A stretch of 64,000 nt of DNA, taken from positions 8,563-72,562 of the forward strand of contig JARYMM010000005.1 in NCBI GenBank assembly GCA_029907105.1, given 5' to 3'. Every line of letters starts with the position of its first letter. The stretch's first letter is position 1. Under the pieces are notes generated by a model. That model saw only the letters and a program-made list of their open reading frames with translations, did not search any database and was not told where the DNA came from. This document shows, piece after piece, positions 3,907 to 45,775 of this stretch. Position numbers and translations under genes: made by a program. This DNA comes from Anaerolineae bacterium (lineage in GTDB: Bacteria > Chloroflexota > Anaerolineae > UBA3071).

Positions 3907-3920
3907 CGAAAGGAGCTTCT

Positions 3921-5516
3921 ATGTCCAAGCCAATCCGTATGCGGAACGTTCTGCTGGCCCTTTGCCTGCTGATCCTGCTTCCGGCGAGCGCGGCCGGGCT
4001 GAGCGCCCCGTCCGAGATGTCCCTCACGACCCCCGCGCCCTACGTGCGCGGCGAGGTCCTCGTGCAATGGCGGGATGCGGCGACGGCGGCCTCTGCCCGC
4101 CGCGACGTCCTCCAGGCCGGGCTGACCGTGTTGCAGGAAATCCCTCCGCTGCGCGTGGCGCGGCTGGCCGTGCCCTCCGGCCAGGAATGGGCATATATCG
4201 AGAGGCTGCGCCAGCACCCGCTCATCACCTACGCCGAGCCCAACTATCTCGTCTACGCCGCCGGCAGCGATGCCGTACAGCCCAACGATCCTTATTGGTC
4301 CAGGCAGTGGAACATGAACCGCATCGAAGCGCCCTCCGCCTGGGCCCTGAGCACAGGCCAGCCAGGGGTCAGCGTTGCCCTGCTCGACACCGGCGTGGAC
4401 ACAGGACACCCAGATCTCAGCGGCAACCTCCTGGCCGGATACGACTTCGTCAATAATGACGCCGACCCGGACGACGATCACGGCCACGGCACGCATGTGG
4501 CGGGCATCATCGCTGCCCAATTGAACAACGGCGTCGGCGTGGCCGGCGTCGCCCCCGCCATCAGCATCCTGCCCCTGAAGGTGCTCAACGAAAAAGGCGA
4601 AGGCGACCACTTTTGGGTCTCTCAGGGCATATCCTACGCCATCGCCAATGGAGCCAGAATCCTCAACCTCAGCTTCGCCGGCCCCTCGTCGGAGACCCTG
4701 GGCACGGCAGTACGCAATGCTTATAATGCCGGCGCGTTGCTGGTGGCCGCCACAGGCAACAATGGCATCGGCAGTGTCTCCTATCCCGCCGCCTATGCTG
4801 AGGTGCTGGCCGTTGCCGCCACCGACTACAATGACCGCTGGCCGTCCTATTCCAACTGGGGGCCGCAGGTGGACCTGGCCGCACCTGGTGGCACGTCGGG
4901 AAATCAGGTCTGGAGCACCTGGCGGAACGGCGGGTATGCCTGGAACTACGGCACTTCGATGGCCGTGCCCCACGTGTCGGGCGCGGCAGCGTTGATTCGC
5001 AGCGTCGCCCCCACGCTGTCCAGGGATGAGGTGGCAAACATCCTGCGCCAGAGCGCTGACCAGGTGGGGCAATTCCCCTATACGGGAGGCCGCAACGACT
5101 ACCTGGGCTACGGGCGGCTCAACGTCCACCGCGCCCTGCGCCAGGCCCTGCCCCCGACGCTCACCGTGCAGCCTGCGCAACTGTTCTTCCTTGGCGATAG
5201 CCAGCAATCGCCCGCCGCGCAGCAGTTGACCCTGAGCAACGAAAGCACCCAGACGCTGCAATGGCAGGCGGAAAAGCTCAGCGGCGGAAGCTGGCTCAAT
5301 CTCATCCCTCCCCTCAGCGGCAACATCACCTATCCATACCCGGCCAGGCTATGGGTCATGGTCACGGGTGGGCTGGATTACGGCACCTACGAAGGCAGCA
5401 TCCGCATCAGCAGCTCCACGCTGGGGGCGCAGGGCACCCCCCGAACGGTTCCCGTACGCCTGATTCTGGTGCCACGGCTGACGCGCGTCTATCTGCCTGT
5501 GGTAGAGAGCCGCTAG
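3921..5516 (+). CDS. secreted S8 family subtilisin-like serine peptidase
   Basis: Signal peptide. Asp/His/Ser triad contexts DTGVD, HGTHVAG, GTSMAVPHVSGAA. N-terminal propeptide-like region. C-terminal extra domain ending RVYLPVVESR. RBS AAAGGAG. Confidence 0.85.
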   Translation: MSKPIRMRNVLLALCLLILLPASAAGLSAPSEMSLTTPAPYVRGEVLVQWRDAATAASARRDVLQAGLTVLQEIPPLRVARLAVPSGQEWAYIERLRQHPLITYAEPNYLVYAAGSDAVQPNDPYWSRQWNMNRIEAPSAWALSTGQPGVSVALLDTGVDTGHPDLSGNLLAGYDFVNNDADPDDDHGHGTHVAGIIAAQLNNGVGVAGVAPAISILPLKVLNEKGEGDHFWVSQGISYAIANGARILNLSFAGPSSETLGTAVRNAYNAGALLVAATGNNGIGSVSYPAAYAEVLAVAATDYNDRWPSYSNWGPQVDLAAPGGTSGNQVWSTWRNGGYAWNYGTSMAVPHVSGAAALIRSVAPTLSRDEVANILRQSADQVGQFPYTGGRNDYLGYGRLNVHRALRQALPPTLTVQPAQLFFLGDSQQSPAAQQLTLSNESTQTLQWQAEKLSGGSWLNLIPPLSGNITYPYPARLWVMVTGGLDYGTYEGSIRISSSTLGAQGTPRTVPVRLILVPRLTRVYLPVVESR

Positions 5517-5536
5517 CCCCCTATCTGTGCCGATTT

Positions 5537-5672
5537 GTAACTACCCTGTCACTGCGAGCGAAGCGAAGCAGTCTCCTGGAATCATGAAGAGATTGCTTGG
5601 CCCTTTCGGGGCTCGCAATGACGCCAACCCACCGCTATATCTCACGTTGCCAGGCCGAAGGTAGGCAGTTAC
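5537..5672 (+). mobile_element. family-A MITE-like structured repeat, copy 1 (136 bp)
   Basis: Terminal inverted repeats GTAACTACC.../...GGTAGGCAGTTAC. Flanked by a perfect 8-bp direct repeat GCCGATTT (target-site duplication). Internal nested hairpins. It lies in the 5' leader of giant gene 1. Confidence 0.6.
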
Positions 5673-5791
5673 GCCGATTTACCGATCACCAATATCTTCC
5701 TGCCCTCTCCTTCGTCATCACGTTGTGGAGGATATGCGCCTGTCACGGGCTTTCCAGGCGCAAACCCAACGGTAAATCCAAGGAGGACGCG

Positions 5792-8700
5792 ATGAAAACC
5801 CGCATCTTGCTCTTGCTTGCTCTGGCCCTGGGCCTGGCCGGGCTGGGTCTCAGTGGCGGAGTGCAGCGACTGGAGGCGGCGAGTTCCAGGCCCTGGGATT
5901 CGGCGGCCAGCCCACAGAAGGCCGAAGCGGAGTGGGGGGACTGGCGCAGCGGTGGCCCCTACGGCGGGGATGTACAGGCGTTGGCCCTTTCCCCCGACTT
6001 CGGCGCTGATGGCCTGGCGCTGGCCGGCGGTTGGCGCACCGGCTATGCCGGGCCCACCGGCTACGGCATCGCCCGCACCACCGATGGCGGCGCGTCCTGG
6101 GCTCTTCTTTTCAGCGGCCCACCCTGGGATGATCTGGCCGTCTTCGACCTGGCCATTTCCCCTGCCTTTGCCGCCGACGGCACGGCTTTCGCCGCCACAG
6201 AGGCCGGCCTGCTGCGCAGCAGCGACCGCGGCAACACCTGGACGCAGCTACACGGCGGACTGCCCGGGCCAGGCAACGACGCCACCGTGGATGATATGGG
6301 CTTCGTGCGCCTGTCGCCCGCCTTCGCCGCCGACGGCACGCTCCTGACCGCGCCGCGCAACGGCTCCCTCTACCGCTCGACCGACCGGGGCAACACCTGG
6401 ACGGAGGTGCTCTCCGGACCAACTTCTGCCGCGGCCTTTTCCCGCTTCTTCGCCGCCAACCACACCGCCTTCGCCACACAGTTCGACGGCGTGGGTGCAA
6501 CCAACCTGCGGCGCTCCACCGACGGTGGGCTGACCTGGCCCCTCGTGCTGAGCCTGCCCGGCGTCCAGGTCAATGACATCCTGGAGACGTTCGAGAACGC
6601 ACTGCTGCTGGCAACCAACGACGGCGTCCTGCGGCTGCTGCCGGTCGGCGGCAGCTACGTGCCGGATACCGTTTCGCCTGACATCGAGGGCCCGGTCTAC
6701 CGGCTGGCGGCGGCAGGGGATCATCTCTACGCCGCGGCACAAAACGGCCTCTTCATCACCTTGACGGAGGGCCGCCGGTGGGATCGCTATGCCGACACGC
6801 CGGTCACTCCGTTCCGGTCCGTCGCCCCCTGCCCGTACTGGGGCTCCTGCCATGCCATGATGGCTGGCACGCACACGGGCATCCTGGGCACGCCCGACGA
6901 TAACCTGATCCCCTGGGCCTGGCTGCCCGGCCCGCACGCCCTGCACAGCGAGAGCGTGGCCGCCTCTCCGGCCTATGCTGCCGACGGCACTCTCTTCGCC
7001 GCCACCGATCATGGCCTTTTCCGCAGCACCGACCGCGGCCTGAGCTGGCAACTGATGGTCGCCGGCAGTCCTCCCGGCGATGATTACGCCTTCCTCAGAG
7101 TACGGATCTCGGCGGGCTATGCCAGCGATGGCACGGTCTTCGCCACCTACGAAAACCGCACTTTGGCCCTGACCGCCCTCTACAAATCCACCGACCGCGG
7201 CCTGACCTGGACGGTGATCCCCGGCCTGGGTGGGGGACGGGCGCTGGCGCTCTCGCCGGCCTATCCCACGGACCGCACCGTGTTCGTTGGACGAGTGGAT
7301 GTGCTGCACAAGTCCACCGACGGTGGCAACACCTGGACGAGCTACCCCATCGCCCCGCCCGATGAGGGCTTCTTCGTCCTCGAACTGGAGACGTCGCCAG
7401 CCTACGCCAGTGACCGCACGCTGCTGGCCACCGGCCTGGGCCGCGTTCGCCGCAGCACCGATGGCGGCGTCACCTGGCAGAACCTGAACACCTACGGCCC
7501 CTCCTACGGGTTGGCCATCTCGCCCAACTATGCCGCCGATGGCACGGCCTGGCACACCTATCGCGCCATCGAAGCCCCCGGCGACGACACGCCGGAAAGC
7601 GGCGTCCTGCGCACCACCGATCGCGGCACCACCTGGAGCTTTGCCACGGCCGGGCTGCCGGGCGTGTACGAGCCTTTCGCCTGGCCGCTGGCGGCCTCGC
7701 CCGGTTTCGCTGTTGACCGTTCGCTCTTCACCGCCCTGCGTGGGCAGTTCGTGGCCGGTACAGAGCACAGCCTCTACCGTTCCATGAACGGCGGCGACAC
7801 CTGGCTGAAACTCGGCCATGCCCCCGGCAACCCCAATCCCTATGACCTGGCGGTCACGACGAACCCTTCCGGCGGCCTGACCGTGCACATGGCCACCGAT
7901 GCTGGCGTCTGGCATTACAGCAGCCGTTGCGAGGAGCGGCTGGTCAACGGCGGCTTCGAGCAAGACCTGGCCTGGCAGTTCCCTGTCACGACCTACCCGG
8001 CAGATTACAGCACGAGTGTCGCGCACAGCGGCCTCCGCAGCCTGCGCACGGGCATCGTCAGCGGCCCCGACGTGTACAGTTATTCGTCGGCCAACCAGGC
8101 GGTGACCATCCCCGCCGGTGTGTCCAGCGCCACACTCACCTTCTGGTGGTATCCGATCTCGGCCGAAGGGCCGCTGGCGGCGGCCGCCGAACCCGACGCC
8201 GCACGCCTGCAGGCGGTGGCCGAGGGCACCCTGCCGGCCGGTGTGCTGGCCGGCGACCGCCAATACGCGCTCCTGCTGGATAGCGCCGGCCACACCCTCA
8301 AGACACTCCTGTGGACGCGTAGCGATGCCCGCACCTGGCAGCAGGCCAGTTTCAACCTGGCCGCCTACGCTGGCCAGGCCGTGCGCGTCCACTTCGGCAC
8401 CTACAACGACGGCGATGGGCGCAGCACGGCCATGTATGTGGACGATGCCTCGCTGATCGTCTGCTGGCCGGGGCCCGTGGAACCCACACCCACGGTGACG
8501 CCAACCAACACACCGACACCCAGGCTGACACCGACGAGCACACCGACATCCACGGCGACGCCTACCCGGCTGCCGCTGACGCCGCGCGCCTATCTGCCGT
8601 TGGTCCTCAGACGCCATACAGCGCCGCGCACGCCGACGCCCACCGCCACGCCCACGCGCACGACAACGGCCACACCAACGGCTACGCGGACACCCACAGC

Positions 8701-11700
8701 GACGCCTACCCCAACGCCGACACCTGGGGCCACGCCCGGTCCGGCCTGTTACGAGGCGCTGGTCAACGGCGGCTTCGAGACCGATGCCGGGTGGGTCATC
8801 CGCCCGAACCCTGTCCTGGCGGCTTACGTCACGACGCCGGTGCACGGTGGGACGCGCAGCATGCGCACCGGCATCGCCGCCGGCGGGGCCAATGTGGAAA
8901 GCTACTCCCCCGTTGAGCAAAGCATCCGCATTCCGCCGCTGCCCTTCCCCGGCATGGCCTCCACGGCCCAGTTGAGCTTCTGGCGCTACAACGTCTACGG
9001 CGACGGCGGCGCGGCCAGCACCCAGAGCACATCGCCGGACCTGAGCGCATTGCCGCGCAGTGAGGCCGAGTTGGCTGCGGCTACCTTTGCCAGCGATTTC
9101 TTCTACGCCATCATCATCCAGGAGGACGGCACCATTGACTGGCTGCTGGTGGAGCGTGTTCACAATCCCTCCTGGCGGTTGATGACGACCTCTCTGGACA
9201 TCGGCCGTTACGCGGGCAAGACAATCCGCCTGCAGTTCGGCACCTACAACAACGGCACAGGCGGCATCAGCCGCACCTATGTGGACGATGCCTCGCTGCA
9301 GGTATGCCCGCCGGCCGGCGCGCTGCTGCTGCCTGGCGGCTGGGTGCGCCGGGTGATCGGACGGCCGGAGATGAACACCCTCTACGCTGACGTGGGCGGT
9401 GCGCTGTATCGCTCCGACGATGCCGGGGCGCACTGGCGTCTGGCGGGCATGGCCCGTCCGGAGCATACCATCCTCAGCGCCAACCCGAACGTGCTTTACG
9501 CCGGCGACGGCTATCCGTGCTACGCTGGCGGCGATCCAGCGCCCATGTGGCGCAGCACCGACGGCGGGGCAAGCTGGCATCAACTGCCGGCCGGCCTCAA
9601 CCTGAAGCCGCTGGCCGCCCATCCTGTGGACGCCCGGCTCTATGCCGCCGGCTGTGACGGCCCTTACCTGAGCCCGGACGGCGGGGCCACCTTCGTCCAC
9701 CAGCCAGACCCGCTCTTCAGCATCTACGATGCCAGGTCCATCGCCCCTGTGGGCACGGCCTGGACCGACGTCTGGATCGGCGGCGTCAGCGAAGGCGGTG
9801 GCGGCGGCATACTGGTCAGCCGCGATAGCGGCGACACTTTCGCCATTTCTTATCCCAAGGCGGGGGATCCGGAGCCGGGCTGGCTGGGCAGGCTGGCCCT
9901 GGATCGCTTCCGGGCAGGCGGTGTCTTCGCCCCGGCGTACTATGGTTTCTTCTATACCCCCAACGACGGGGAAGCCTGGCTGAACCATTCGCAAGGGCTG
10001 GAAGAGGTCACCGGCGGCATCCGCCCGTCGGGACTGCACGTGGTGATCCAGGACCCGCTTGGCGGCCCGGACGGCCGGCTCTTCCTGGGCACCGAGCGCG
10101 GCCTGTACACGCGCGCCCCAAACACGCTCCTGTGGTACAAGATCGCCGGCCAGCCCTTTGACCTGCTGCCTGTGCGCGACCTGTTGCTGCTGGACGGCGC
10201 GCCGCGCTGGCTCTACGTGACCACCTCCTTCGGGGTCTTCCTGTACGATGTAACGCATGTGCCCCCGGCACCCACACCGACTTCCACGCCGACGAGCCTG
10301 CCCAGCCCGAGCCCTACGCCAACCCGGACAGCCACATCCACAGCGACACCCACGCCCGCTGCCACGACCACCCCGACGGCCACGCGCACATCAACAGCCA
10401 CGCCGACAGCCACCCCGACGGCCATCCCCACGGCGACGCCGGGCGTCTGGCCGACGCCATACGTGTTGCGCACGCTGAGCCTGCCGACGGGCAGCCATCC
10501 GCACGGCATCGGCCTGGATGGCCCGGGCGATCGGCTCTATGTAGCCTTCCATGGCCCAGATCACACCGGCCACACCCTGGGCGTGGTGCGTACCCTCACC
10601 CTGGACCTGATGGCCCAGGCCGAACTGAGCCCCAGCATCGGCCCCAACGGCGTCACTGCCCTTCTCCCAGGAGCCCGGATCGCCGTGGCCAACCGCCAGA
10701 CAGACGACGTAGCTGTGGTAGACCGCAACACATTGGCGGTTGTCCGGCGCATCCCGGCCGGCGATATGCCCGACGGCGTCATCGTTCAAGGCAATTTCGG
10801 CTACGTCGCCAATTTCGGCAACGACACGGTGACCGTGTTCGACCCCGTGAGCCTGGACGTGCTGCACACGCTGCATGTCGGCCACGAGCCGTCGCTCTTC
10901 GCTGCCGACCCGGAGGCCGGTGACGTGTACCTGTCGCTGCATGGCTCGAACCAGGTCGCCCGCCTGCACGACGGCGCGGTGGTCGGCCTTTACAACGGCA
11001 TCCAGGAACCCTATGGCCTGGCCTTCGACCCGGCCAGCCGGCGGCTCTATGCCGCCAACCGCGGCTGGGCGCATACGGTCACGGTGATTGACGTGATCAG
11101 CGGAAACGTGGTGGGCACTATCGGTGTGGGCAGGGAGCCATTCGTTCTGGAGGTGAACCCCAACAGTGGCCACCTGTTCGTGGTCTGTGGCGACGAAGTG
11201 AAGGTCTACCGCACGCTGGACTGGGCGCCGGTGGTCAACATCCCCGTGCCGCCTGGCGCCGAAGAGGGCATCGCCCTGCACAACGCCCTGAACCGCGTTT
11301 ACGTCACCAGCGGCGAGGGCGATGCGCTGACCGAAATTCAGGATGCCGCACCGCCGCTGGTCCTGTTCGCCAGCAACCGGGACGGCAATGGCGAGATCTA
11401 CCGCATGTTGCCCGACGGGCAGGAGCAGATCCGCCTGACCTTCACCGCCGAGGCTTACGAGACCAGGCCGGTGGGCTCTCCTTACGGACGCTGGATCGCC
11501 TATGAGCGGACGGACCCCGGCGGCACCACCCACCTCTGGCTGATGAGCCGCGATGGCCGCAACCCCCGCCAGCTCACCTTCGGCAGCAGTTACGAGCACT
11601 GCCCTGCCTGGTCCGGTGACGGCACCAGGTTGGCCTTCACCTCGAACCGGGACGGCAACTGGGAAATCTACACCCTGCGCCTGGCCGACGGCCTGGTGAC

Positions 11701-12175
11701 CCGCCTGACCTTCCATGCCGCAGCCGACGAGGGCCCCAACTGGTCGTGGGCCACAGGCCAGATCGTCTTCCAGTCCGACCGCTTTGGCCCGAATTCCGAG
11801 ATCTTGCGCATGGAGGCCGACGGCAGCGGCGTGGTGCGGCTGACCGTCAACCCCAACGGGGACAGCAGCCCGAGCTGGTCGCCGTCCGCTGATCGGATCG
11901 TCTTCTTCGGCAGCCGCGCCGAGCAGACACTGCACGTGATGCGGGCCGACGGTTCCGGCATTGCGCCGCTCGTCCCGGGCAGCCTGCGTCCGGCGGCTCC
12001 GGCCTGGGGCCCGGCCAGCGCGGGGGACGTCATCGCCTTCCAGGGGTATCGGCCCGGCAGCGGGCATAGCGAGATCTTCCGCGTCGCCCCCAATGGCAGC
12101 GGTTTGGTGCTCTTGACGTTCAACGCCGTGGACTTCGACTATGCGCCAGGGTGGCTGCCGGCGCCATCCCGGTAA
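5792..12175 (+). CDS. giant secreted multidomain protein: BNR/Asp-box beta-propellers, 2 CBM4/9/22-like modules, Thr/Pro linkers, YVTN beta-propeller, TolB-like PD40 propeller
   Basis: Start reassigned to ATG 5792 (RBS AAGGAGG, signal peptide MKTRILLLLALALGLAG). The tool ORF from 5597 reads through the MITE. Many S-x-D-x-G-x-T-W boxes (STDGGASW, STDRGNTW and others). VNGGFE...VDDASL jelly-roll modules twice. TPTPT linkers. YVANFGNDTVTVFD-type YVTN repeats. C-terminal DGNGEIYRM / DGNWEIYTL PD40 repeats. Confidence 0.8.
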   Translation: MKTRILLLLALALGLAGLGLSGGVQRLEAASSRPWDSAASPQKAEAEWGDWRSGGPYGGDVQALALSPDFGADGLALAGGWRTGYAGPTGYGIARTTDGGASWALLFSGPPWDDLAVFDLAISPAFAADGTAFAATEAGLLRSSDRGNTWTQLHGGLPGPGNDATVDDMGFVRLSPAFAADGTLLTAPRNGSLYRSTDRGNTWTEVLSGPTSAAAFSRFFAANHTAFATQFDGVGATNLRRSTDGGLTWPLVLSLPGVQVNDILETFENALLLATNDGVLRLLPVGGSYVPDTVSPDIEGPVYRLAAAGDHLYAAAQNGLFITLTEGRRWDRYADTPVTPFRSVAPCPYWGSCHAMMAGTHTGILGTPDDNLIPWAWLPGPHALHSESVAASPAYAADGTLFAATDHGLFRSTDRGLSWQLMVAGSPPGDDYAFLRVRISAGYASDGTVFATYENRTLALTALYKSTDRGLTWTVIPGLGGGRALALSPAYPTDRTVFVGRVDVLHKSTDGGNTWTSYPIAPPDEGFFVLELETSPAYASDRTLLATGLGRVRRSTDGGVTWQNLNTYGPSYGLAISPNYAADGTAWHTYRAIEAPGDDTPESGVLRTTDRGTTWSFATAGLPGVYEPFAWPLAASPGFAVDRSLFTALRGQFVAGTEHSLYRSMNGGDTWLKLGHAPGNPNPYDLAVTTNPSGGLTVHMATDAGVWHYSSRCEERLVNGGFEQDLAWQFPVTTYPADYSTSVAHSGLRSLRTGIVSGPDVYSYSSANQAVTIPAGVSSATLTFWWYPISAEGPLAAAAEPDAARLQAVAEGTLPAGVLAGDRQYALLLDSAGHTLKTLLWTRSDARTWQQASFNLAAYAGQAVRVHFGTYNDGDGRSTAMYVDDASLIVCWPGPVEPTPTVTPTNTPTPRLTPTSTPTSTATPTRLPLTPRAYLPLVLRRHTAPRTPTPTATPTRTTTATPTATRTPTATPTPTPTPGATPGPACYEALVNGGFETDAGWVIRPNPVLAAYVTTPVHGGTRSMRTGIAAGGANVESYSPVEQSIRIPPLPFPGMASTAQLSFWRYNVYGDGGAASTQSTSPDLSALPRSEAELAAATFASDFFYAIIIQEDGTIDWLLVERVHNPSWRLMTTSLDIGRYAGKTIRLQFGTYNNGTGGISRTYVDDASLQVCPPAGALLLPGGWVRRVIGRPEMNTLYADVGGALYRSDDAGAHWRLAGMARPEHTILSANPNVLYAGDGYPCYAGGDPAPMWRSTDGGASWHQLPAGLNLKPLAAHPVDARLYAAGCDGPYLSPDGGATFVHQPDPLFSIYDARSIAPVGTAWTDVWIGGVSEGGGGGILVSRDSGDTFAISYPKAGDPEPGWLGRLALDRFRAGGVFAPAYYGFFYTPNDGEAWLNHSQGLEEVTGGIRPSGLHVVIQDPLGGPDGRLFLGTERGLYTRAPNTLLWYKIAGQPFDLLPVRDLLLLDGAPRWLYVTTSFGVFLYDVTHVPPAPTPTSTPTSLPSPSPTPTRTATSTATPTPAATTTPTATRTSTATPTATPTAIPTATPGVWPTPYVLRTLSLPTGSHPHGIGLDGPGDRLYVAFHGPDHTGHTLGVVRTLTLDLMAQAELSPSIGPNGVTALLPGARIAVANRQTDDVAVVDRNTLAVVRRIPAGDMPDGVIVQGNFGYVANFGNDTVTVFDPVSLDVLHTLHVGHEPSLFAADPEAGDVYLSLHGSNQVARLHDGAVVGLYNGIQEPYGLAFDPASRRLYAANRGWAHTVTVIDVISGNVVGTIGVGREPFVLEVNPNSGHLFVVCGDEVKVYRTLDWAPVVNIPVPPGAEEGIALHNALNRVYVTSGEGDALTEIQDAAPPLVLFASNRDGNGEIYRMLPDGQEQIRLTFTAEAYETRPVGSPYGRWIAYERTDPGGTTHLWLMSRDGRNPRQLTFGSSYEHCPAWSGDGTRLAFTSNRDGNWEIYTLRLADGLVTRLTFHAAADEGPNWSWATGQIVFQSDRFGPNSEILRMEADGSGVVRLTVNPNGDSSPSWSPSADRIVFFGSRAEQTLHVMRADGSGIAPLVPGSLRPAAPAWGPASAGDVIAFQGYRPGSGHSEIFRVAPNGSGLVLLTFNAVDFDYAPGWLPAPSR

Positions 12176-12337
12176 CTGCGGCCTGTTCGTTGGCTGACGA
12201 TTTCAGCGCGGAGGACGCCGAGCCCGCTGAGAAAAGCCTCCGAATTCCCTTACTCTGCATTCTCTGCGGCCTCTGCGGCACAACGGCCAATACTTTGGGA
12301 AAGCCCTTTTCGAGCATTGAGACAAGGAGAACTGAAC

Positions 12338-15300
12338 ATGAGAAAGCGGATTCTGCCCCCACTCGTCCTGGCCCTGATCCTCAGCGTCCTGACCCTGGGC
12401 ACCGCAAGCTGGGCCCTGGAAAGCGGAAACGCACAGGTTGTATACCCAATATCCAATCTCCAATCTCCAACTTCCGACTTCCAACCCCTGACCTCCGGCC
12501 CGCGCGGCGGCAGCGTGGCTGCCGTGGCCATCTCCCCCAACTTCCCCAGCGACCGCATCGCCTTCGCCGGCGTGCGGGGGTATGGTGTCTACCGCTCCAC
12601 CAATGGCGGCTGGAGCTGGGAACGGGTCACCCCCGACGAGGAGCGCTCCGGCTGGGCCATCGGCGACCTGGAGGTGTCGCCCGCCTTTCCGGACGACGAG
12701 ACCGTGTTCGTACTGACGAACATCTGGACGTATGGCGGCAACGTCTACCGCTCCACCGACGGCGGCGACACCTGGTATCCGCCGCAGAGCCATCCCGATG
12801 GCATACTGCCCGGCCTGCGCGCCCTGGCCGTCTCCCCCGATTTCGCCAACGACCAGACGGTCTACGCCCTGCACAGTTCGCGCAGCCTGGTCTCCACTGA
12901 CGGCGGCCGCCACTTCACCGACCTGCCCGACTGGTTCGGCGGCCAGAACGTGCAGGTGCTGGCCTTCTCGCCCCGCTACGCCACAGACCGCATCCTCTTC
13001 GCCGTCGCCGGCGGGACGCTCTACCGTTCCACCAATGCCGGCGGGAGCTGGACAGCCATCGGCGCCGGGTTGCCCGGCTCCCCGGAGGTGCTGGCCGTGG
13101 CCCCCGGCTTCGCCCATCCGGGGCCGCTGCTGGCCGTCTCCTCGCTGGATCACGCCGTTTACTTCTCCAGCGACAGCGGCGACCACTGGGTAGCGAGCGA
13201 CCTGACCCTGGGCGCGAGCACCAGGCCCTGGCTGGCCTTTGCCCCGGACTACCCCAGCAGCCTGGTCGCCTTCGCCGGCAGCGGCGGGCCGACGGGCGTC
13301 TATCGCTCCACCGACGGCGGGTTGCATTGGCAGGTGGTGGGTGAGCCGACCGAGGATGGCAACGGCTTGCCCGGCCCCAACTCCTTCGACATGGCCTTCT
13401 CGCCCGCCTACGCCACCGACTATCTCAGCCTGCTGGCCACCAGTGCGGGCGTCTATCGCACGGCCAGCCCCGGCGACCCGCCGCCCTGGTGGCCGCGCAA
13501 CGACGGCCTGCCGCGGCTGCCCGTGGCCCGCATCGCCGCCGCCCCGGCCTGGACGAACACCCTCTTCGCCGCCACCTCTTTCTTCGAGACGGTGCGCGCC
13601 TACTCCACCAGCAGCCGCTACGACGGCAACATCCACCGCTCCACCGACGGCGGCCAGACCTGGCAGCCGGTCAGCCCGCGCCTCGACTCCGTGCAGGCCC
13701 TGGTCATCTCGCCCAACTTCCCCGGCGATCACACCCTCTTCGCCGCCACCGGCTACCTGGCCGGGCACGGCCAGCAGGGCGGCACCGTCTACCGCTCCAC
13801 CGACAGCGGCCTGCACTGGGAGGCCGTGGGCGACCTGGTTTACATCCACGACCTGGTCATCTCGCCCGACTACGGGCACGATCGGACGCTCTTCGCCAAC
13901 GCCCAGTACAGCACGGGCATGCCTGTGGGACCGGGCATCTTTCGCTCCACCGACGGCGGCGAGACCTGGACGCGCCTCAGCGACATGTTCCCGGCCTGGC
14001 TGGCCATCTCGCCCAACTTTGCCGACGACAACATCCTCTTCGCCGCCACGCCCGCCAGCCTCTACCGCTCCGCCAACCGCGGCGCCAGCTGGACGCCGGT
14101 GCTGGGCGGCAGCTTCTCCGCACCGCCGGTCATCTCGCCGCACTTCTGGCTCGACCGTACCGCCTACGTGGTCAACGGCGATCAGCTCTACCGCTCCAAA
14201 GATGCCGGGCTCACCTGGCAGCCGGTGGCGGATGATCTGCCCGACGGGCCAGGGCCTGTGCTGCGCTTCGGCCCGGCGGACGGTCTGACGACAGTCGTGG
14301 GTGGAAGCGTAGGAACTGGGGGAACTCAGGGGACTCAGAGTATTGTTTTCCATTCCACCGACGGCGGCAGCCACTGGCCCTCCCTGGACGGCCCGCTGCC
14401 CATGGGCGTGGACGATATGCTCTGGTACCGCTCCGTGCCCGGCAACATGTGGACGCTTTTCGCTGCCGGCGACGACGGGCTGTGGTCGCTGCGCTGGGCC
14501 GAGGAGGCCCCCTGGTTCGGCGAGTGGCGCAGCGGCGGCCCCCGTGGCGGCCAGGCGCTGGCCATTGCCCTCTCGCCGGAATTCGCCAGTGACGGCCTGG
14601 TCTTCGCCGGCGGCGGCCAGTGGCTCTCCGGTCGCGGCGACCGCACCGGCAAGGGGCTTTTCCGCTCCGCCGATGGCGGCCAGACCTGGATGGCCAGCGG
14701 CAAAAGCACCTTCAGCGGCTACGCCAGTTCCATCGAGGACGTGGACATCTCCAGCCACTGGCCCAGCGACGGCACAGCCTTCGTCGGCACCTGGGGCGGC
14801 GTCTACCGCACTACCGACTGGGGGGCGACCTGGCAGCGGGTGGCCGAGGAGGTGCTGCACACGCCCGGCGCGGCCACCACCGTGGCCATGTCCCCCGGCT
14901 TCTACCTGGATGGCATCGTCCTGGCCGGCGGCGGCTACGGCGGCCTGTTCTACACCGAAGATGGCGGCGACCACTGGCAGATCACCCTGGGGGAGATCGG
15001 CCCCTCCGCCGACGTGGCTTTCTCGCCTGCCTTCCTGGCCGATACCACGGCCTTCGCCGGGGCTTACGATGGCGTCTGGCGCACGGAGGACCGCGCCGCC
15101 CACTGGGGCCACGTCCTGGACCTGGACAGCGGCTCGGTCAGCGACGTGGAGGTCTCCTGTGACTTTGAAAACGACCGTACCGTCTACGCCGCCACCTGGA
15201 TCGGCACCGCGCCGCCGTACATGATGCGTTCCACCGACGGCGGCGACACCTGGCACGTGGCCGACAGCGGCCTGGACCGCCTGATCAACGCGATGGACAC

Positions 15301-18300
15301 CGCCTGCGACGGCGGTAGCACCATCCTCTTCGCCGGCGGCACGGCTCTCTTCCGCTCCACCGATGGCGGCGAAAGCTGGCAGATGCTCCCCGGCTGGCCG
15401 GAAGGGGTCAGCATCCAGGAACTGGCCGTCTCGCCGCAATTCGCCAGCGATCACACGCTGCTGGCCGGCACCTACGCCGGCGTTTACCGCTCTACCGACG
15501 GCGGGGCAAGCTGGACGCTGAGCGAAGGCTTCGTGCCCCTGGAGACGCGCGTGGTGGCCCCCTCGCCCGCCTATGCCGCCGACGGCACGCTGTTTGCGGG
15601 CACGGAGATGGGAGTCTATCGTTCCACCGACCGGGGCCATAGCTGGCAACCGGCCAACAAGGGGCTGGTGGGCAGCTACGCCGTGACCATTCTCGACGTC
15701 GTCGTCTCGCCCCAGTTCGCCAGCGACCACACGCTGTTCGCCTCCTGGAAGCTGAGCGGCCGCATCGGCGGCAACGTCTACCGCTCCACCGACGCCGGAG
15801 AAAACTGGGAGCGGCTCTGGGGCACGGGATACGTCGGTGACCTGGCCATCTCGCCCCAGTTCCCTGGCGATCAGACCCTCTTCGCCGTCGCCGAGGGCAT
15901 GGTCTTCAAGTCCACCGACGGCGGCGTGAGCTTCACGCCCAAACTATCCGAGTTGACGCCGGCGGTGGAAATCGGCATCTCGCCGCAATACGGCAGCGAT
16001 CACACGGTGTACGCCGTGGGCTATGGCCCTGTCTACCGCTCCACCGACGGCGGCGAGACCTGGTTGCCGCTTGCCGGCTGGCCGCCTCACTACGGCATCG
16101 GCCTCTCGCCCGCCTTCGGTGCCGACGGCACGCTCTTTGCCACCTACCGGGAGATCGAGGGCTCCGGCCTGCGGCCGGAGAGCGGCGTCATCCGCTCCAC
16201 CAACCGCGGCGCGAGCTGGGACCTGGCCACGGCTGGACTGCCCGGCACCTACGAACCATGGCCGCAGTCACTGGCTCTCTCGCCTGATTTCGCCACCGAT
16301 CGCATGCTCTTCACCGCCGTGAGCGGCATCCCCCACCTGGGGCCGAACCAGGTCTACGGCTCGGCCAGCGCGGGCGATGGCTGGGCCCCGCTGCCGCCCA
16401 TCCCCGGCGAGCCATCCCTCTACAAGCTCTCGGTCAGCTCCCCTCTCCCTCTGGGAGAGGGGCCGGGGGTGAGGGAACTGCACGCCGGCACTGCGGCGGG
16501 AGCCTGGCATTACTCGTCGGCCTGTTTCAACGCCATCGCCAACAGCGGCTTCGAGTTCGACACCGGCTGGACAATGCCCATCACGCCCTATCCCGCAGCC
16601 TACAGCACCGACCTGGCGCACAGCGGCTATCGCTCGCTGCGCACGGGCATCCCCCCTGGCGGCCCCAACATGCTCAGCTACTCCTCTGCTTACCAGACGG
16701 TGAGCATCCCCGCCGGCGCCGCCTCGGTCACGCTGCGTTTCTGGGAGTACCCGCTTTCCGGCGAGGCCAGCCAGCTCAAGATGCCGGCCCACGTCAACCC
16801 CCTGACCGCCTCCCTGGCCGTGGACGCCCAATACGTCCTGGTGCTCGACGCCAGCGGCCAGTGGCTGCGCACGCTGCTCTGGCAGGCTGCGGACAGTCGG
16901 CTGTGGACCCAGCACCAGTTCGACCTCAGTGACTATGCCGGCCAGACCATCCGGCTGCATTTCGGCACCTACAACAACGGCACAGGCGGCCTCACGGCCA
17001 TGTACGTGGACGACGTCGTGCTGGAGGTCTGCCCGGAGCTGCCGCCCACGCCCACGCCGACACGCACGCCCACGGCGACGCCCACCGTCGGCCCCAGCCC
17101 CACCCCCACGGCCACACCGGTGCGCGACCGCTTCCAGTACCTGCCGTTGGTGCTGAAGCGCTATGTGCCGCCGAGGCCCACGCCGACGGCCACACCCACC
17201 CGCACGCCCTCGCCGACACGTACTCCGACGCCGACCTTCACGCCGTCGCCCACCGTCGGCCCCAGCCCCACGGCCACACCCACACCCACGCCCAGCGGCG
17301 CATGCACGGAGGCCGTGGTCAACGGCGGCTTCGAGACGGATGAGGTCTGGGTGCGGCCGGTGACGGCCATGCAGGCTGTTTACAGCACTGCCGTCGCTCA
17401 CGGCGGCACCCGCTCCATGCGCACCGGCATCCCCGCCGGGGGCAGCAACATCCTCAGCTACTCCTCGGCTTACCAGACCATCACCCTGCCCCCTGGCCCT
17501 GGCACGGCCACGCTGAGCTTCTGGTACTATCCTGTGTCCGGCGAGGCGACGGCAACGACTTCCCAACTTCAAGCCGAGGGAGGGTATTCGATATTGGATA
17601 CCAGATATTCCAATATCCAGTACCCGATATCCAATACCCAATATCCATCCTTCAGCCCTGCCGCGGCGGATCGGCAGTATGCTTTGCTACGTGATGGGGC
17701 CGGCACCTGGCACGTGCTGCTGTGGACGCTCTCCAACGCCCGCACCTGGCTGCGCTATGAGGCGGACCTTTCTGCCTATCGCGGGCAGACGGTGCGGCTG
17801 CACTTCGAGACCTACAACGACGGCGTGGGTGGCACCACGGCCATGTACCTGGACGACGTCAGCATCCAGGTCTGCCCGCCGACCCCGCCGACGCCCACGG
17901 CCACCCTGACGCCGACGCCCACCCGCACGCCGCCGGCGGACGCCTTGATCATCAACGGCGAATGGGTGCACGGCCTGGTGGGTCACCGCGCCAGCAGCAC
18001 GCTGTATGCCTACAGCGCCACCCACCTCTACCGCTCCAACGATGCGGGCATGACCTGGGCGACGGCAGGCAGCGCCGTGGGCGAGTTCCTGATGAGCCCG
18101 GCCAATCCCAACGTGCTCTACCGTGGCCCCGGCTACCCCTGCCTGGCCGGCGGGCCGGACGTGCCCATGTACAAAAGCACTGACGGCGGAGCGAGTTGGT
18201 TCGAACTGCCGGCGGGACTGAACCTCAAGGTTCTGGCAGCGCATCTGACCGACCCCAACCGCGTCTACGCCGCCGGATGCAATGGCCCCTACCTCACCAG

Positions 18301-20071
18301 CGACGGCGGCGCCACCTGGACGCATCAGCCCTCGCCGCTATGGGGCGTCCTGGAGGTGAAGCACATCGCCCCTGTGGAACCGACCTGGCAGACGGTGTAC
18401 GCGGCCGGCGTCAGCGAAGGCGGCGGCGGCGCAATCCTCAAGAGCAGCGACGGCGGCGCGACCTGGCAACAGGCGACGCCGCTCTACGCCGACATCTGGT
18501 GGATCACCGACCTGCTGGTGGACCCGGCCAATACGCTGGTGGTGCGCTTCACCGAGCCGCACATGCCGTGGTGGAGCCGCGACGGCGGCACCACCTGGTG
18601 GTGGAGCTGGTCCGGCCTGCATGACGTGGTCTATAACCCCGGCGGCCCGCCCGATCAGACCTACGGCCTCTACGACCTGGAGCTGGACGCCGCCGATCAC
18701 GAGCAGCTTTACCTGGGCACCATCCGCGGGCTCTACGTCAGCGGCGACGGCGGCTGGGCCTGGTACAAGGTCACGGGCGGCCATACGTGGGAGAATGCGC
18801 CCCTGGGCAAACTGCTGCTCCTGGAAGCGGCGCCCACGAAGCTCTACCTGGTGCGGGGTGGGCAGCAAGGTGTCCATGTCTTCGACCTGGGCGGCCTGCC
18901 CCCCATCCCCACACCGACGCCGACCAACACGGTGACGCCCACGGCCACGCGTACTCCCACGCCCACAGCGACGCGCACGCCGACACCCACCCCCACGCGT
19001 ACACCCACCGGCACAGCGACGCCCACCGCGACGCGCACGCCGACGCCGGCGGCGCCCTATGTGCTGGCGACCATTGCCCTGCCCGCAGGCAGCCACCCGC
19101 ATGGCGTGGCCCTCGACCTGGCCGGAAACCGCGCCTTCGTCGGCCATCATGGCCTGAACCACGACGGCCATGCCCTCTCCGTCATTAACGGCAACACGCT
19201 GGCCGTGGCAGCCACCATTGACCTGGGGACAGCAGCGCAAGGACCCAATGGCGTCGCTTACCACCCGGCCACGGATCGGGTCTACGTGGCCAATCGCAAC
19301 AGCAACAACGTCTCCGTGGTCAATCCGACGGCGGGCATCGTGGTCAAGCATCTGCCTGTGGGCTCCATGCCCAACGGCGTAGCTGTGGTGGACAACCTGG
19401 TGTACGTGGCCAACTTCAACGACGGCACGGTGACGGTGATAGACGCCAGCACAGCCACGGTGGATCACACCATCCCGCTAGTGGGGACGCAGCCGTCGCA
19501 CTTCGCCGTGGACCAGGCCCAGAGCTACGCCTATCTGAGCCTGCATGGCGACGGGGCGGTGAGCTACCTGCACGACGGCGACCGCTGGAACTATCTTCCC
19601 GGCATACCCGAAGCCTATGGGATTGCCTTCAATCCTGTGGCCCGCCGGCTGTACGTGGGCAGCCGCGGGTTCCACCACAGGGTGACGATGGTGGATGTGG
19701 ACACGAACACCCAGCTGGGCGCGTTCCCGGTGGACTGTGAACCGTACATGCTGGGCGTCAACCCCAACACGGGGCACTTCTTCGTCGTCAACAGGGACTT
19801 CGTGCAGGTACGGCGCACGGCAGATACGACCCTGGTGACCACGCTGCCACTGCCCATCGGGGCGGAGGAGGGGATCGCTGTGGACACGGTGCGCAACCGC
19901 GTCTACATCACCAGCCGCGACTCGGACACGGTGACCGTAGTGCAGGATACACCACTACCTGTCACTGCGAGCGAAGCGAAGCAGTCTCCTGGAATCAATA
20001 GGAGATTGCTTCGCCCCTTCGGGGCTCGCAATGACGCCAACTCAACGCTATATCTCACGTTGCAAGGCTGA
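12338..20071 (+). CDS. giant secreted multidomain protein, paralog of the upstream gene: BNR/Asp-box propellers, CBM-like modules, Thr/Pro linkers, YVTN propeller
   Basis: Start ATG 12338 (RBS AAGGAG, signal peptide MRKRILPPLVLALILSV). More than 25 Asp-box motifs (STNGGWSW, STDGGDTW and others). NSGFEFDTGW and VNGGFETDEVW CBM-like modules. TP linkers. YVTN repeats. The last ~38 codons and the stop come from the family-A MITE copy 2. Confidence 0.8.
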   Translation: MRKRILPPLVLALILSVLTLGTASWALESGNAQVVYPISNLQSPTSDFQPLTSGPRGGSVAAVAISPNFPSDRIAFAGVRGYGVYRSTNGGWSWERVTPDEERSGWAIGDLEVSPAFPDDETVFVLTNIWTYGGNVYRSTDGGDTWYPPQSHPDGILPGLRALAVSPDFANDQTVYALHSSRSLVSTDGGRHFTDLPDWFGGQNVQVLAFSPRYATDRILFAVAGGTLYRSTNAGGSWTAIGAGLPGSPEVLAVAPGFAHPGPLLAVSSLDHAVYFSSDSGDHWVASDLTLGASTRPWLAFAPDYPSSLVAFAGSGGPTGVYRSTDGGLHWQVVGEPTEDGNGLPGPNSFDMAFSPAYATDYLSLLATSAGVYRTASPGDPPPWWPRNDGLPRLPVARIAAAPAWTNTLFAATSFFETVRAYSTSSRYDGNIHRSTDGGQTWQPVSPRLDSVQALVISPNFPGDHTLFAATGYLAGHGQQGGTVYRSTDSGLHWEAVGDLVYIHDLVISPDYGHDRTLFANAQYSTGMPVGPGIFRSTDGGETWTRLSDMFPAWLAISPNFADDNILFAATPASLYRSANRGASWTPVLGGSFSAPPVISPHFWLDRTAYVVNGDQLYRSKDAGLTWQPVADDLPDGPGPVLRFGPADGLTTVVGGSVGTGGTQGTQSIVFHSTDGGSHWPSLDGPLPMGVDDMLWYRSVPGNMWTLFAAGDDGLWSLRWAEEAPWFGEWRSGGPRGGQALAIALSPEFASDGLVFAGGGQWLSGRGDRTGKGLFRSADGGQTWMASGKSTFSGYASSIEDVDISSHWPSDGTAFVGTWGGVYRTTDWGATWQRVAEEVLHTPGAATTVAMSPGFYLDGIVLAGGGYGGLFYTEDGGDHWQITLGEIGPSADVAFSPAFLADTTAFAGAYDGVWRTEDRAAHWGHVLDLDSGSVSDVEVSCDFENDRTVYAATWIGTAPPYMMRSTDGGDTWHVADSGLDRLINAMDTACDGGSTILFAGGTALFRSTDGGESWQMLPGWPEGVSIQELAVSPQFASDHTLLAGTYAGVYRSTDGGASWTLSEGFVPLETRVVAPSPAYAADGTLFAGTEMGVYRSTDRGHSWQPANKGLVGSYAVTILDVVVSPQFASDHTLFASWKLSGRIGGNVYRSTDAGENWERLWGTGYVGDLAISPQFPGDQTLFAVAEGMVFKSTDGGVSFTPKLSELTPAVEIGISPQYGSDHTVYAVGYGPVYRSTDGGETWLPLAGWPPHYGIGLSPAFGADGTLFATYREIEGSGLRPESGVIRSTNRGASWDLATAGLPGTYEPWPQSLALSPDFATDRMLFTAVSGIPHLGPNQVYGSASAGDGWAPLPPIPGEPSLYKLSVSSPLPLGEGPGVRELHAGTAAGAWHYSSACFNAIANSGFEFDTGWTMPITPYPAAYSTDLAHSGYRSLRTGIPPGGPNMLSYSSAYQTVSIPAGAASVTLRFWEYPLSGEASQLKMPAHVNPLTASLAVDAQYVLVLDASGQWLRTLLWQAADSRLWTQHQFDLSDYAGQTIRLHFGTYNNGTGGLTAMYVDDVVLEVCPELPPTPTPTRTPTATPTVGPSPTPTATPVRDRFQYLPLVLKRYVPPRPTPTATPTRTPSPTRTPTPTFTPSPTVGPSPTATPTPTPSGACTEAVVNGGFETDEVWVRPVTAMQAVYSTAVAHGGTRSMRTGIPAGGSNILSYSSAYQTITLPPGPGTATLSFWYYPVSGEATATTSQLQAEGGYSILDTRYSNIQYPISNTQYPSFSPAAADRQYALLRDGAGTWHVLLWTLSNARTWLRYEADLSAYRGQTVRLHFETYNDGVGGTTAMYLDDVSIQVCPPTPPTPTATLTPTPTRTPPADALIINGEWVHGLVGHRASSTLYAYSATHLYRSNDAGMTWATAGSAVGEFLMSPANPNVLYRGPGYPCLAGGPDVPMYKSTDGGASWFELPAGLNLKVLAAHLTDPNRVYAAGCNGPYLTSDGGATWTHQPSPLWGVLEVKHIAPVEPTWQTVYAAGVSEGGGGAILKSSDGGATWQQATPLYADIWWITDLLVDPANTLVVRFTEPHMPWWSRDGGTTWWWSWSGLHDVVYNPGGPPDQTYGLYDLELDAADHEQLYLGTIRGLYVSGDGGWAWYKVTGGHTWENAPLGKLLLLEAAPTKLYLVRGGQQGVHVFDLGGLPPIPTPTPTNTVTPTATRTPTPTATRTPTPTPTRTPTGTATPTATRTPTPAAPYVLATIALPAGSHPHGVALDLAGNRAFVGHHGLNHDGHALSVINGNTLAVAATIDLGTAAQGPNGVAYHPATDRVYVANRNSNNVSVVNPTAGIVVKHLPVGSMPNGVAVVDNLVYVANFNDGTVTVIDASTATVDHTIPLVGTQPSHFAVDQAQSYAYLSLHGDGAVSYLHDGDRWNYLPGIPEAYGIAFNPVARRLYVGSRGFHHRVTMVDVDTNTQLGAFPVDCEPYMLGVNPNTGHFFVVNRDFVQVRRTADTTLVTTLPLPIGAEEGIAVDTVRNRVYITSRDSDTVTVVQDTPLPVTASEAKQSPGINRRLLRPFGARNDANSTLYLTLQG

Positions 20072-20085
20072 AGGCAGGCAGTTAC
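19966..20085 (+). mobile_element. family-A MITE-like repeat, copy 2 (5' truncated or diverged left end)
   Basis: About 90% identical to copies at 5537 and 23901 from CTGTCACTGCGAGC to GGCAGTTAC. Lacks the GTAACT left terminus and has no target-site duplication. Overlaps the 3' end of giant gene 2. Confidence 0.55.
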
Positions 20086-20107
20086 GTTAGAACGGGCGTT
20101 CGGAAAC

Positions 20108-23900: not shown

Positions 23901-24042
23901 GTAACTACCTACCCTGTCACTGCGAGCGAAGCGAAGCAGTCTCCTGGAATCGAAACAGGAGATTGCTTCGCCCCTTCGGGGCTCGCAATGACGCCAGCCC
24001 ACCGCTATATCTCACGTTGCAAGGCCGAAGGTAGGCAGTTAC
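23901..24042 (+). mobile_element. family-A MITE-like repeat, copy 3 (142 bp, intact termini)
   Basis: Left end GTAACTACCTACC and right end GGTAGGCAGTTAC form a 12/13-bp terminal inverted repeat. Flanked by direct repeat CCAGAACG (8-bp target-site duplication). Confidence 0.6.
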
Positions 24043-24280
24043 CCAGAACGACGAAAAGATACCGGCCGGCAAAGGTTTGCCCGTAGACATGATAACGGGG
24101 CAATCCGTAGCGAGTGATCCCTGCTCGGCGGGCCAAATGGTTGCCTGGTTCGCAGACCTCCTCTACCTCCCAGGGTTCCACGCCGTGCTCGGCGATATGT
24201 TGTACGTTCCACCCATCCTATTCGAGCTCTTCAATGCGCATGCATGTCCTCGCTGCCTCAGTACCCCGCTACCTCGGTGC

Positions 24281-45733: not shown

Positions 45734-45775
45734 ACGATCACTTTGCATAGCCAATTATACTCAAAATGGCGATTT

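Follow-up and report, generated by a model that had tools for sequence, protein, structure and literature searches.

Beta-propellers built from Asp-box blades occur in enzymes as well as in binding proteins. Continuous Asp-box blades that form tandem propellers have been termed the 'type 3' organisation, and Asp-box propellers are also known from non-enzymes such as Vps10/sortilin and Ycf48 (Quistgaard & Thirup, PMC2716378). Among the glycoside hydrolases (GHs), the GH74 xyloglucanases (6P2N, 6P2O, 5FKQ, 2CN3, 1SQJ) have tandem seven-bladed Asp-box propellers that are often fused to carbohydrate-binding modules (CBMs). Ycf48/HCF136 and Vps10/sortilin are non-catalytic binders of ligands or proteins. 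They contain one propeller of 7 or 10 blades and act in the assembly of photosystems or in sorting in eukaryotes. A propeller of another type, YVTN, is combined with PKD in the Methanosarcina mazei surface layer protein (1L0Q), an extracellular envelope protein. Short signatures carried by many secreted proteins of one lineage are also well described, for example LPXTG/sortase, PEP-CTERM/exosortase and MYXO-CTERM/myxosortase, and classical C-terminal sorting signals of this kind are tripartite, consisting of a motif, a transmembrane helix and a basic tail (bioRxiv 10.1101/2023.06.07.544157). Here we analyze a locus that resembles each of these systems in part. It lies in a window of 64,000 nucleotides, the whole stretch of DNA that was analyzed, which is part of a 107-kb contig (JARYMM010000005.1) of a metagenome-assembled genome (MAG) labelled 'Anaerolineae bacterium' at NCBI (locus tags QHJ81_*). 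In this locus a gene for an S8 subtilase of 531 amino acids (aa) (3921-5516, + strand; hereafter S8) is followed by the genes for two giant proteins, G1 (2128 aa, 5789-12175, +) and G2 (2577 aa, 12338-20071, +). An earlier note on this DNA had described the two giants as co-oriented and as having the same module order, and the open reading frames (ORFs) bear out this description together with their coordinates and lengths.

With slightly better than even confidence, we read G1 and G2 as exported, non-catalytic glycan- and protein-binding proteins of the cell surface or of a matrix or sheath, built from a conserved head and YLP-box unit plus a variable extension, with S8 as co-located cargo. 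In this view an uncultured filamentous bacterium of the Anaerolineae exports them by the Sec route as extracellular proteins whose modules are arranged like beads on a string. Their conserved head, in which a CBM-like jelly roll follows the GH74-like tandem propellers (a single such unit in G1, two in G2), would most likely bind glycans. It closes in a short motif, the YLP-box, that also forms the C-terminus of stand-alone 'head-only' homologs of 1550 aa. Past the box, Thr/Pro spacers link an extension in which another jelly roll is followed by the third Asp-box propeller, a YVTN propeller of the type known from an archaeal S-layer protein and, in G1 alone, a PD40 propeller. Through the YLP-box, G1 and G2 would be tethered or sorted to one shared envelope partner, contacts with glycans and proteins would come from the propellers and jelly rolls, and S8 would be a further YLP-box cargo that is encoded alongside rather than a dedicated partner.

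Modules and folds of G1 and G2

The window DNA has a GC content of 62-69%, and real genes were told from spurious ORFs by the GC content of third codon positions (GC3). GC3 values of 0.82-0.87 together with homologs at E=0 establish S8, G1 and G2 as real genes and not high-GC artefacts. G1 starts at the ATG at 5789 with AAGGAGGA 6 nt upstream as its Shine-Dalgarno sequence, and G2 at the ATG at 12338 with AAGGAGAA upstream in the same role. G2 is identical to NCBI MDH7485196.1 ('hypothetical protein QHJ81_02850') and S8 to MDH7485194.1 ('S8 family peptidase'). Read by eye, all three proteins have a positively charged N-terminus that is followed by a hydrophobic stretch, as expected of signal peptides. 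Very long antisense ORFs of up to 1336 aa overlap the giant genes (6248-10258, -; 12203-15730, -), and ORFs of the 14370-19556 type are present in the loci. They are taken as high-GC artefacts because similar opposite-strand ORFs of the window show inverted codon-position GC, with high GC at first positions and lower GC3.

The G1 protein begins with a signal peptide and a GH74-like head of two seven-bladed Asp-box propellers (aa ~45-705; 5921-7903, this and all following module coordinates being on the + strand). The head is followed by jelly roll 1, a CBM-like beta-sandwich (aa 706-893; 7904-8467), a Thr/Pro linker with the YLP-box RAYLPLVLRRH (aa 933-943; 8585-8617), and jelly roll 2 (aa 986-1175; 8744-9313), which is 40% identical to jelly roll 1. 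After these come a third Asp-box propeller with weak BNR/Sortilin matches and 42% identity to its G2 counterpart (aa 1176-1490; 9314-10258), another Thr/Pro linker, a YVTN propeller (aa 1549-1860; 10433-11368) and a TolB-like PD40 propeller (aa 1861-2128; 11369-12172). G2 repeats this order with a second tandem-propeller head unit added at the N-terminus and without PD40. Its Asp-box region (aa ~45-1390; 12470-16507) holds ~28 blades, with 21 strict Asp-boxes, that make up two head units, A (40-740) and B (741-1392). Identity is 38% between unit B and the G1 head and 33% between the two units. Next in line are jelly roll 1 (16508-17038; 53% identical to that of G1), the YLP-box RFQYLPLVLKRY (aa 1598-1609; 17129-17164), jelly roll 2 (17294-17875), a third-type Asp-box propeller (17948-18898; Sortilin-Vps10, 3.5e-10) and a YVTN propeller (19061-19972) that is 47% identical to that of G1.

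Pfam and NCBIfam searches and pattern scans agree with the Asp-box, YVTN, PD40 and Thr/Pro-linker calls of the earlier note. Strict Asp-boxes (S-x-[DN]-x-G-x-x-[WF]) number 12 in G1 and 26 in G2, with Sortilin-Vps10/BNR matches down to 2e-55, the latter in the G2 Asp-box region. PD40 (PF07676, 1.5e-22, 79 bits) is indeed an extra module of G1 only. YVTN repeats (TIGR02276, cut-off 27.85 bits) are above threshold in G1 (59.0 bits) and G2 (67.9 bits) and also in two further giants of the window described below, G3 (134.2 bits) and G4 (81.0 bits). The reuse of YVTN and Thr/Pro linkers in all four giants holds up, as does the description of the proteins as secreted and modular. The four YVTN modules are 30-47% identical. 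Their closest solved relative is the archaeal surface-layer protein 1L0Q (5.9e-25 for G1, 1e-22 for G2), and there is a weak match to the Kustd1514 S-layer protein (E 1e-3). However, in G1 and G2 the YVTN propeller is one C-terminal module of many, and lattice formation is not indicated. The PD40 tail of G1 matches PDB structures of TolB at 1e-12 to 1e-14 and resembles the C-terminal domain of this Tol-Pal component. It differs from TolB in that TIGR02800 reaches only 116.6 bits against a cut-off of 343.15, over propeller positions 239-391 only, and in that the TolB N-terminal domain is absent from G1. Nearly all G1-like giants end in …LLTxNEVNFDYAPGWLPG[WQP] at the close of the PD40 propeller, which may be just the last strand or may constitute another conserved motif at the terminus.

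An AlphaFold2 model of G1 25-900, built from 18 sequences, has a mean pLDDT (predicted local distance difference test) of 85 and a predicted template modelling score (pTM) of 0.79. It contains 7+7 blade units, as delimited by DSSP, followed by a beta-sandwich. In a Foldseek search of the PDB the top 22 matches of the G1 head are all GH74 xyloglucanases (E 7.7e-25 to 2.4e-19), with an only modest template modelling (TM) score of 0.53-0.59 and 14-19% identity. Sequence comparison leads elsewhere, as phmmer with the G1 head recovered only HCF136/Ycf48 from the PDB and no GH74, and the best matches at this level are Sortilin-Vps10 and PSII_BNR. G2 has just a local match to GH74 (5JWZ, 4.5e-7). An hhalign comparison of the G1 head with GH74 gave 98% probability, but its register was off by one blade and it was left out of the residue mapping. 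In addition, the blades of the head are far more regular than those of GH74 (SPxFxxD plus Asp-box), and G2 carries two tandem-propeller units in a row. The head also differs from Ycf48/HCF136 and Vps10/sortilin in that its propellers are tandem (7+7), secreted and attached to CBM-like modules.

To locate the catalytic positions, the GH74 motifs ARTDIGG and GDIGGF, from the first blade of each propeller, were read from the PDB sequences 6P2O and 5JWZ, blades were assigned from the AlphaFold2 model and 109 homologs were aligned. The N-domain equivalent in G1 is Gly81/Trp82, in a family column with E53, G19, T9 and D8, and the C-domain equivalent is Asp407, in a column with S22, Y17, R10 and D9. 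The GH74 inverting mechanism requires both acids, and since the pair is not conserved we judge the head to be non-catalytic, or at least not a GH74 enzyme. The head thus agrees with GH74 in fold and not in the catalytic Asp pair. It most likely binds glycans rather than cleaving them, and the polysaccharide 'processing' that had been proposed for G1 and G2 finds no catalytic evidence.

All four jelly rolls, two each in G1 and G2, open with N[GS]GFE. Many CBM4_9 modules begin N-G-G-F-E, and the domains had been called CBM4/9-like. However, none of the four matches Pfam CBM_4_9 (PF02018) at E<=1. Their sole Pfam match is a partial one, to the last ~45 residues of the InhA-like MAM model (29.3 bits in G2 jelly roll 1), and G2 jelly roll 2 is matched by the NCBIfam choice-of-anchor J model (33.8 bits, cut-off 30). 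An AlphaFold2 model of G1 700-1176 shows two confident beta-sandwiches (pLDDT 80-93) with a disordered linker between them. Their structural neighbours in Foldseek are a tandem CBM22 (4XUP, 1.2e-10), CBM16 (2ZEX, TM to target 0.65), CBM61 (2XON, 0.72) and CBM4-2 (0.55-0.57), with MAM domains of meprin ranking after the CBMs. The modelled jelly rolls are therefore CBM-like in fold and not in family, so that the earlier call stands for the fold while the family assignment falls.

The YLP-box motif

The YLP-box, [RK]-x-[YF]-L-P-[LIV]-[IV]-L-[KR], was absent from the earlier note. It lies in the disordered linker after the head in G1 and G2 and at the C-terminus of S8. It is this box, rather than the YVTN module that the note had proposed as a shared anchor, that G1 and G2 have in common with further secreted proteins of their lineage. 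When used as a query for homologs, G2 retrieved a large family of ~1550-aa Anaerolineae proteins that match its first ~1570 residues. Among 91 homologs of 1500-1700 aa, 87 have the box within the last 30 residues, and in 79 of the 87 the Pro is located 4-9 residues from the C-terminus. The tail consensus of these homologs is [YH]-[RK]-V-Y-L-P-[LIV]-[IV]-L-K-x(0-5). We built a position-specific scoring matrix from the 87 tails and scored all six-frame positions of the window. The G1 box ranked first (22.6 bits), the G2 box second (19.8 bits) and the S8 tail third (13.3 bits), ahead of the best out-of-frame chance match (11.7 bits). A site in G3 ranked fifth at 11.0 bits and is uncertain by score alone. 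A six-frame scan with the simpler pattern [YF]LP[LVI][VIL] returned four matches, all of which are in secreted proteins (the S8 C-terminus, G1 935, G2 1601 and G3 1186).

Across 12 aligned G1/G2-type proteins the box is maintained amid a variable Thr/Pro linker. An internal box of at least 14 bits is present in 18 of 27 giant homologs (shuffled maximum, 11.5 bits), and the G2 ortholog P0001, in locus L080, has FYLPLLTKRY. Many G1/G2-type orthologs have an extra ~330-aa propeller inserted directly after the box, and the module content past the box varies. In the AlphaFold2 model the G1 box is disordered (pLDDT 33-42) and is not docked on the jelly rolls, which speaks against the box being a strand packed on these domains.

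A library-wide search with the head recovered 992 cluster representatives at E<=1e-30. Of the best 144 new ones listed, 14 carry the box at the C-terminus and another 22 carry it elsewhere. In at least seven proteins of 430-740 aa that are jelly-roll relatives (P0160, P0173, P0176, P0179, P0197, P0213 and P0255) the box is found ~20 residues past the signal peptide. Six of these finish in a jelly roll without a C-terminal box, and P0255 ends differently and is perhaps truncated. Its place is therefore not confined to the C-terminus. The occurrence of the YLP-box at N-terminal, internal and C-terminal positions argues against a strictly C-terminal signal and for a linear motif that serves tethering, recognition or processing.

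The motif itself is already listed in NCBIfam as NF053834 ('ultrashort_CTERM') and NF050076 (sort_motif_YLP, 'YLP-box putative sorting motif-containing protein'). These models have the same consensus and score the tails of the 1550-aa family at 12.3-14 bits (NF053834 cut-off, 10). S8 ends in a weaker version of the motif, located in its last 10 residues. In contrast, the boxes of G1 (aa 935 of 2128) and G2 (aa 1601 of 2577) are internal, 1190 and 970 residues from the C-terminus. Like the sortase- and exosortase-type signals, the YLP-box is a short signature on many secreted proteins of one lineage, and it shares L-P with LPXTG. Unlike them, it lacks a hydrophobic helix and a basic tail, and either 0-5 terminal residues or a Thr/Pro linker come after it. 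In the library searched, no paper that describes the motif turned up, and a paper on wastewater Chloroflexota does not mention these giant proteins. None of the domain types is new, and the motif already has a catalogue entry as putative. The novelty lies in finding it at internal and N-terminal positions and in connecting it with a large family of giant proteins.

S8 consists of a signal peptide, a fervidolysin-like N-pro domain (Fervidolysin_NPro, 2.8e-13), an S8 catalytic domain (Peptidase_S8, PF00082, 3e-59, 201 bits), an Ig/BACON-like domain (BACON_2, weak) and the YLP-like C-terminus RVYLPVVESR* (5484-5513, +). The Asp/His/Ser triad motifs LLDTGVD, HGTHVAG and GTSMAVPH are readable in the translation. 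Assignment as a mycosin associated with type VII secretion (TIGR03921) fails at 221.9 bits against a cut-off of 278.75, and no type VII secretion genes were seen among the window ORFs scanned. At the aligned box position, S8 orthologs of three relatives have SFVPLLPNR, TFLPWIANQ and LFLPTIARE. In these orthologs (L002 4486-6930, L012 1-2004 and L007 2-1447) the box occurs where the window S8 stops and is followed by an extra domain of ~180 aa ending in …LPW. Relatives also encode a secreted CAP/SCP protein of 516-546 aa with a Thr/Pro linker, Ig-like repeats and a C-terminal YLP-box (L002 7896-9533, L012 ~3065-4616, L080 8007-9557). Its gene is directly upstream of G1 orthologs in L002 and L012 and of the G2 ortholog in L080, and it is absent from the window. 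A second CAP-domain gene precedes it in L002 and L012.

Locus history and neighbouring genes

Residues 50-1477 of G1 align with 760-2170 of G2 at 40% identity over 1514 aligned residues, and module by module the two proteins are 38-53% identical. The two genes had been described as tandem paralogs. However, identity is only 40%, closer orthologs exist elsewhere (56-76% identical to G1, 73% to G2), and orthologs of G1 and G2 are never adjacent in the relatives examined. This leads us to reject a recent tandem duplication, and G1 and G2 appear to be old paralogs that are juxtaposed in the window. G1 relatives are found in HGW-Chloroflexi-1 (76% identity), several Anaerolineae MAGs (56-66%) and Candidatus Amarolinea aalborgensis (62%), and Candidatus Amarolinea, a filamentous sludge bacterium (PMC10746286), is the closest named relative of the source organism. 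The G2 ortholog P0001 (73% identity) sits alone and has the same downstream synteny as in the window, with a diacylglycerol kinase and a membrane protein of 480-490 aa. The 1550-aa homologs are likewise stand-alone genes in unrelated contexts, and on three long contigs no conserved operon partner, transporters, glycosidases or polysaccharide-utilisation context was found beside them. Consequently, the comparison of synteny in relatives does not yield a conserved operon. What recurs is a grouping of YLP-box cargo proteins rather than an operon that would process polysaccharides.

A further element of locus history is a repeat of ~130 nt that is present in three direct copies in the window, with an almost invariant shared core and an imperfect palindrome within. 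A three-copy alignment places copy 1 between S8 and G1 (5541-5675), copy 2 over the G2 3' end (19961-20094) and copy 3 (~23925-24060) past the gene at 22003-23442. Copy 2 encodes the last ~32 codons (…ASEAKQSPGINRRLLRPFGARNDANSTLYLTLQG*) and the stop of G2, and the ortholog P0001 stops just ahead of it. An intergenic repeat element thus supplies the last 32 residues of G2, which corrects the earlier account. As a candidate structured RNA the repeat was rejected, with a folding z-score of only -1.2 and no Rfam match.

The G1-G2 pair is flanked by copies 1 and 2, a placement suggestive of rearrangement, and together with the non-adjacent orthologs and the housekeeping surroundings this would fit a locus whose co-location carries no meaning. 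According to such an explanation, unrelated adhesin-like giants and a protease are chance neighbours, and the YLP-box is a conserved structural element that caps linkers. S8 bears on this question in two ways. The S8 proteins of relatives are only 42-43% identical to that of the window and have a different C-terminal domain, as chance would allow, yet S8 is found 0.9-3.6 kb upstream of full-head G1 orthologs in three other MAGs (L002, L007 and L012), so that the S8-G1 linkage is seen in four genomes including the window. Furthermore, YLP-box proteins (S8, CAP, G1 and G2) cluster beyond expectation, with a C-terminal box in 5 of 181 coding-like ORFs compared with an interior rate of 0.19% per 14-residue window. 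The motif is also strongly kept within fast-evolving disordered linkers, with no predicted packing on any domain. We consider chance co-location unlikely.

The other two giants, G3 and G4, lie 29-38 kb from G1 and G2, with dnaG, rpoD, glyA, glnA, hutU, ppdK and similar genes between. This distance among housekeeping genes, and the stand-alone position of family members elsewhere, lend no support to the coordinated apparatus that the earlier note had envisaged. G3 (1496 aa; 49355-53845, -) contains DUF11, a GH-A (GH5/GH39-like) head, a Thr/Pro linker, a YVTN propeller, a Thr/Pro linker, a low-scoring YLP-like box and a second propeller. Its head had been called GH-A-like and is matched only weakly (Pfam Cellulase, 1.5e-5; GH39/PslG, 7e-5). 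Past the second Thr/Pro linker, aa ~1070-1200 of G3 resemble by eye a pre-peptidase C-terminal (PPC) domain, and the YLP-like box runs straight into the second YVTN-like propeller without a Thr/Pro linker. G4 (1688 aa; 58608-63674, -) is composed of an N-terminal membrane anchor, a ~560-aa head, Thr/Pro linkers, SH3, YVTN and two C-terminal repeats, and has no YLP-box. The N-terminus of G4 is a hydrophobic segment that looks like a membrane anchor and not a cleavable signal peptide, and its terminal repeats are ~130 aa each. As had been claimed, the G4 head is without a recognisable family, with no relative in the PDB or Pfam (best match, GDSL lipase at E 0.013).

The locus is set among housekeeping genes. 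Upstream are genes for a GTPase, an SDR and a DUF2085 protein, and downstream are a diacylglycerol kinase, methylmalonyl-CoA mutase, cobO, glnA, hutU, glyA, queG, rpoD, dnaG, ppdK and a nitrilase. The gene at 22003-23442 (+) encodes a 479-aa polytopic membrane protein that has no significant Pfam match and a faint, near-full-length similarity to GT87 at E 0.35. The pair of this gene and the diacylglycerol kinase is kept together beside the G2 ortholog in L080. The membrane protein could be a GT-C-type glycosyltransferase relevant to glycosylation of the Thr/Pro linkers, which we offer as a hint. Between glyA and rpoD there is a group I intron at 45340-45621 (-; with flanks, 45200-45760), identified by Rfam RF00028 at 52.5 bits (gathering score 50). 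ARAGORN reports no tRNA here with default settings and calls an intron-containing tRNA when long introns are allowed. The T-arm and acceptor in the 3' exon are clean, and the identity of the tRNA is ambiguous, being Thr-GGT, or Leu-CAA after splicing by hand.

Alternative functions and significance

The position of the box allows G1 and G2 to be viewed as polyproteins. Cleavage or attachment would then take place at the internal YLP-box, and a cut there, possibly made by S8, would free a mature 'head' that corresponds to the 1550-aa proteins and a separate YVTN/PD40 'stalk'. The box is exactly where head-only homologs stop, homology extends to position +6 (YLPLVLKRY compared with YLPIILKNY*), and modules past the box are variable. 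S8 orthologs too have the box followed by an optional extra domain, but the fact that S8 bears the box itself suggests that it is cargo and not the processing enzyme. Similarly, S8 is upstream of full-length G1 orthologs in three relatives and the window, but no S8 is found near the G2 ortholog or the shorter G1-like genes, including that of Candidatus Amarolinea. Boxes ~20 residues past signal peptides are a misfit to removal of a C-terminal part, and a Pro directly after Leu disfavours subtilase cleavage at that bond. We therefore regard a polyprotein as very unlikely. It is equally doubtful that G1 and G2 are active polysaccharide degraders, GH74-like endo-glucanases or xyloglucanases with CBMs that act with S8 and the GH-A-like G3, for although the head fold and hhalign point to GH74, the CBMs closest to the jelly rolls bind xylan, glucan and galactan, G3 has its weak GH5/GH39 similarity, G1 retains Asp407 and the NCBIfam 'F510_1955 family glycosylhydrolase' model (NF045728) totals 294 bits for G2, that total adds together 10 partial matches of repeats to a model of 246 positions, neither catalytic position is conserved in the 109 homologs (Gly/Trp at the N-domain position of G1), phmmer finds no GH74 for the head, no transporters or glycosidases are conserved beside family members, and Asp-box propellers serve non-enzymes as well (PMC2716378).

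Several points also weigh against our preferred reading of G1 and G2 as exported, non-catalytic surface proteins that share a YLP-box unit. Export is read from the N-termini by eye, and the location at the surface or in a sheath is suggested by analogy in a phylum whose envelope architecture is itself poorly known. The resemblance of the head to GH74 is of modest TM-score, and the catalytic mapping was done at the level of motifs and AlphaFold2 blade assignment and not by structural superposition, so that some other catalytic constellation may exist. A CBM-like fold is no proof of sugar binding as MAM domains match too. Finally, the NCBIfam YLP hidden Markov models did not report the window's own boxes.

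A more far-reaching proposal, which we put forward by analogy and hold to be decidedly improbable, concerns what the YLP-box might do. It could be a linear tag of ~10 residues, peculiar to Anaerolineae-type Chloroflexota, that serves tethering or assembly whether it is placed at the N-terminus, internally or at the C-terminus and that needs no transmembrane segment. Through this tag a single envelope receptor or enzyme would capture many different secreted proteins. The receptor might be the YVTN/PD40 propellers of giants such as G1-G4, in a manner comparable to TolB and its 'TolB-box' peptides. G1 and G2 would then be both cargo and receptor and could form the filament's surface layer or sheath by self-assembly.

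In activated sludge, filamentous Anaerolineae such as Candidatus Amarolinea provide the flocs with their backbone and give rise to bulking, and how the filaments build their surface and adhere to other cells has been described as unclear (PMC10746286). The locus described here indicates a large uncharacterised family of giant surface proteins of glycan-binding type that have a short motif in common, and this shared motif may be the route by which the lineage directs secreted proteins to its envelope. If the YLP-box is not such a signal, then what we describe is an ordinary set of modular secreted proteins. If it does sort or tether proteins at any position without a membrane anchor, it would constitute a new type of localisation signal in a phylum with a poorly understood envelope.

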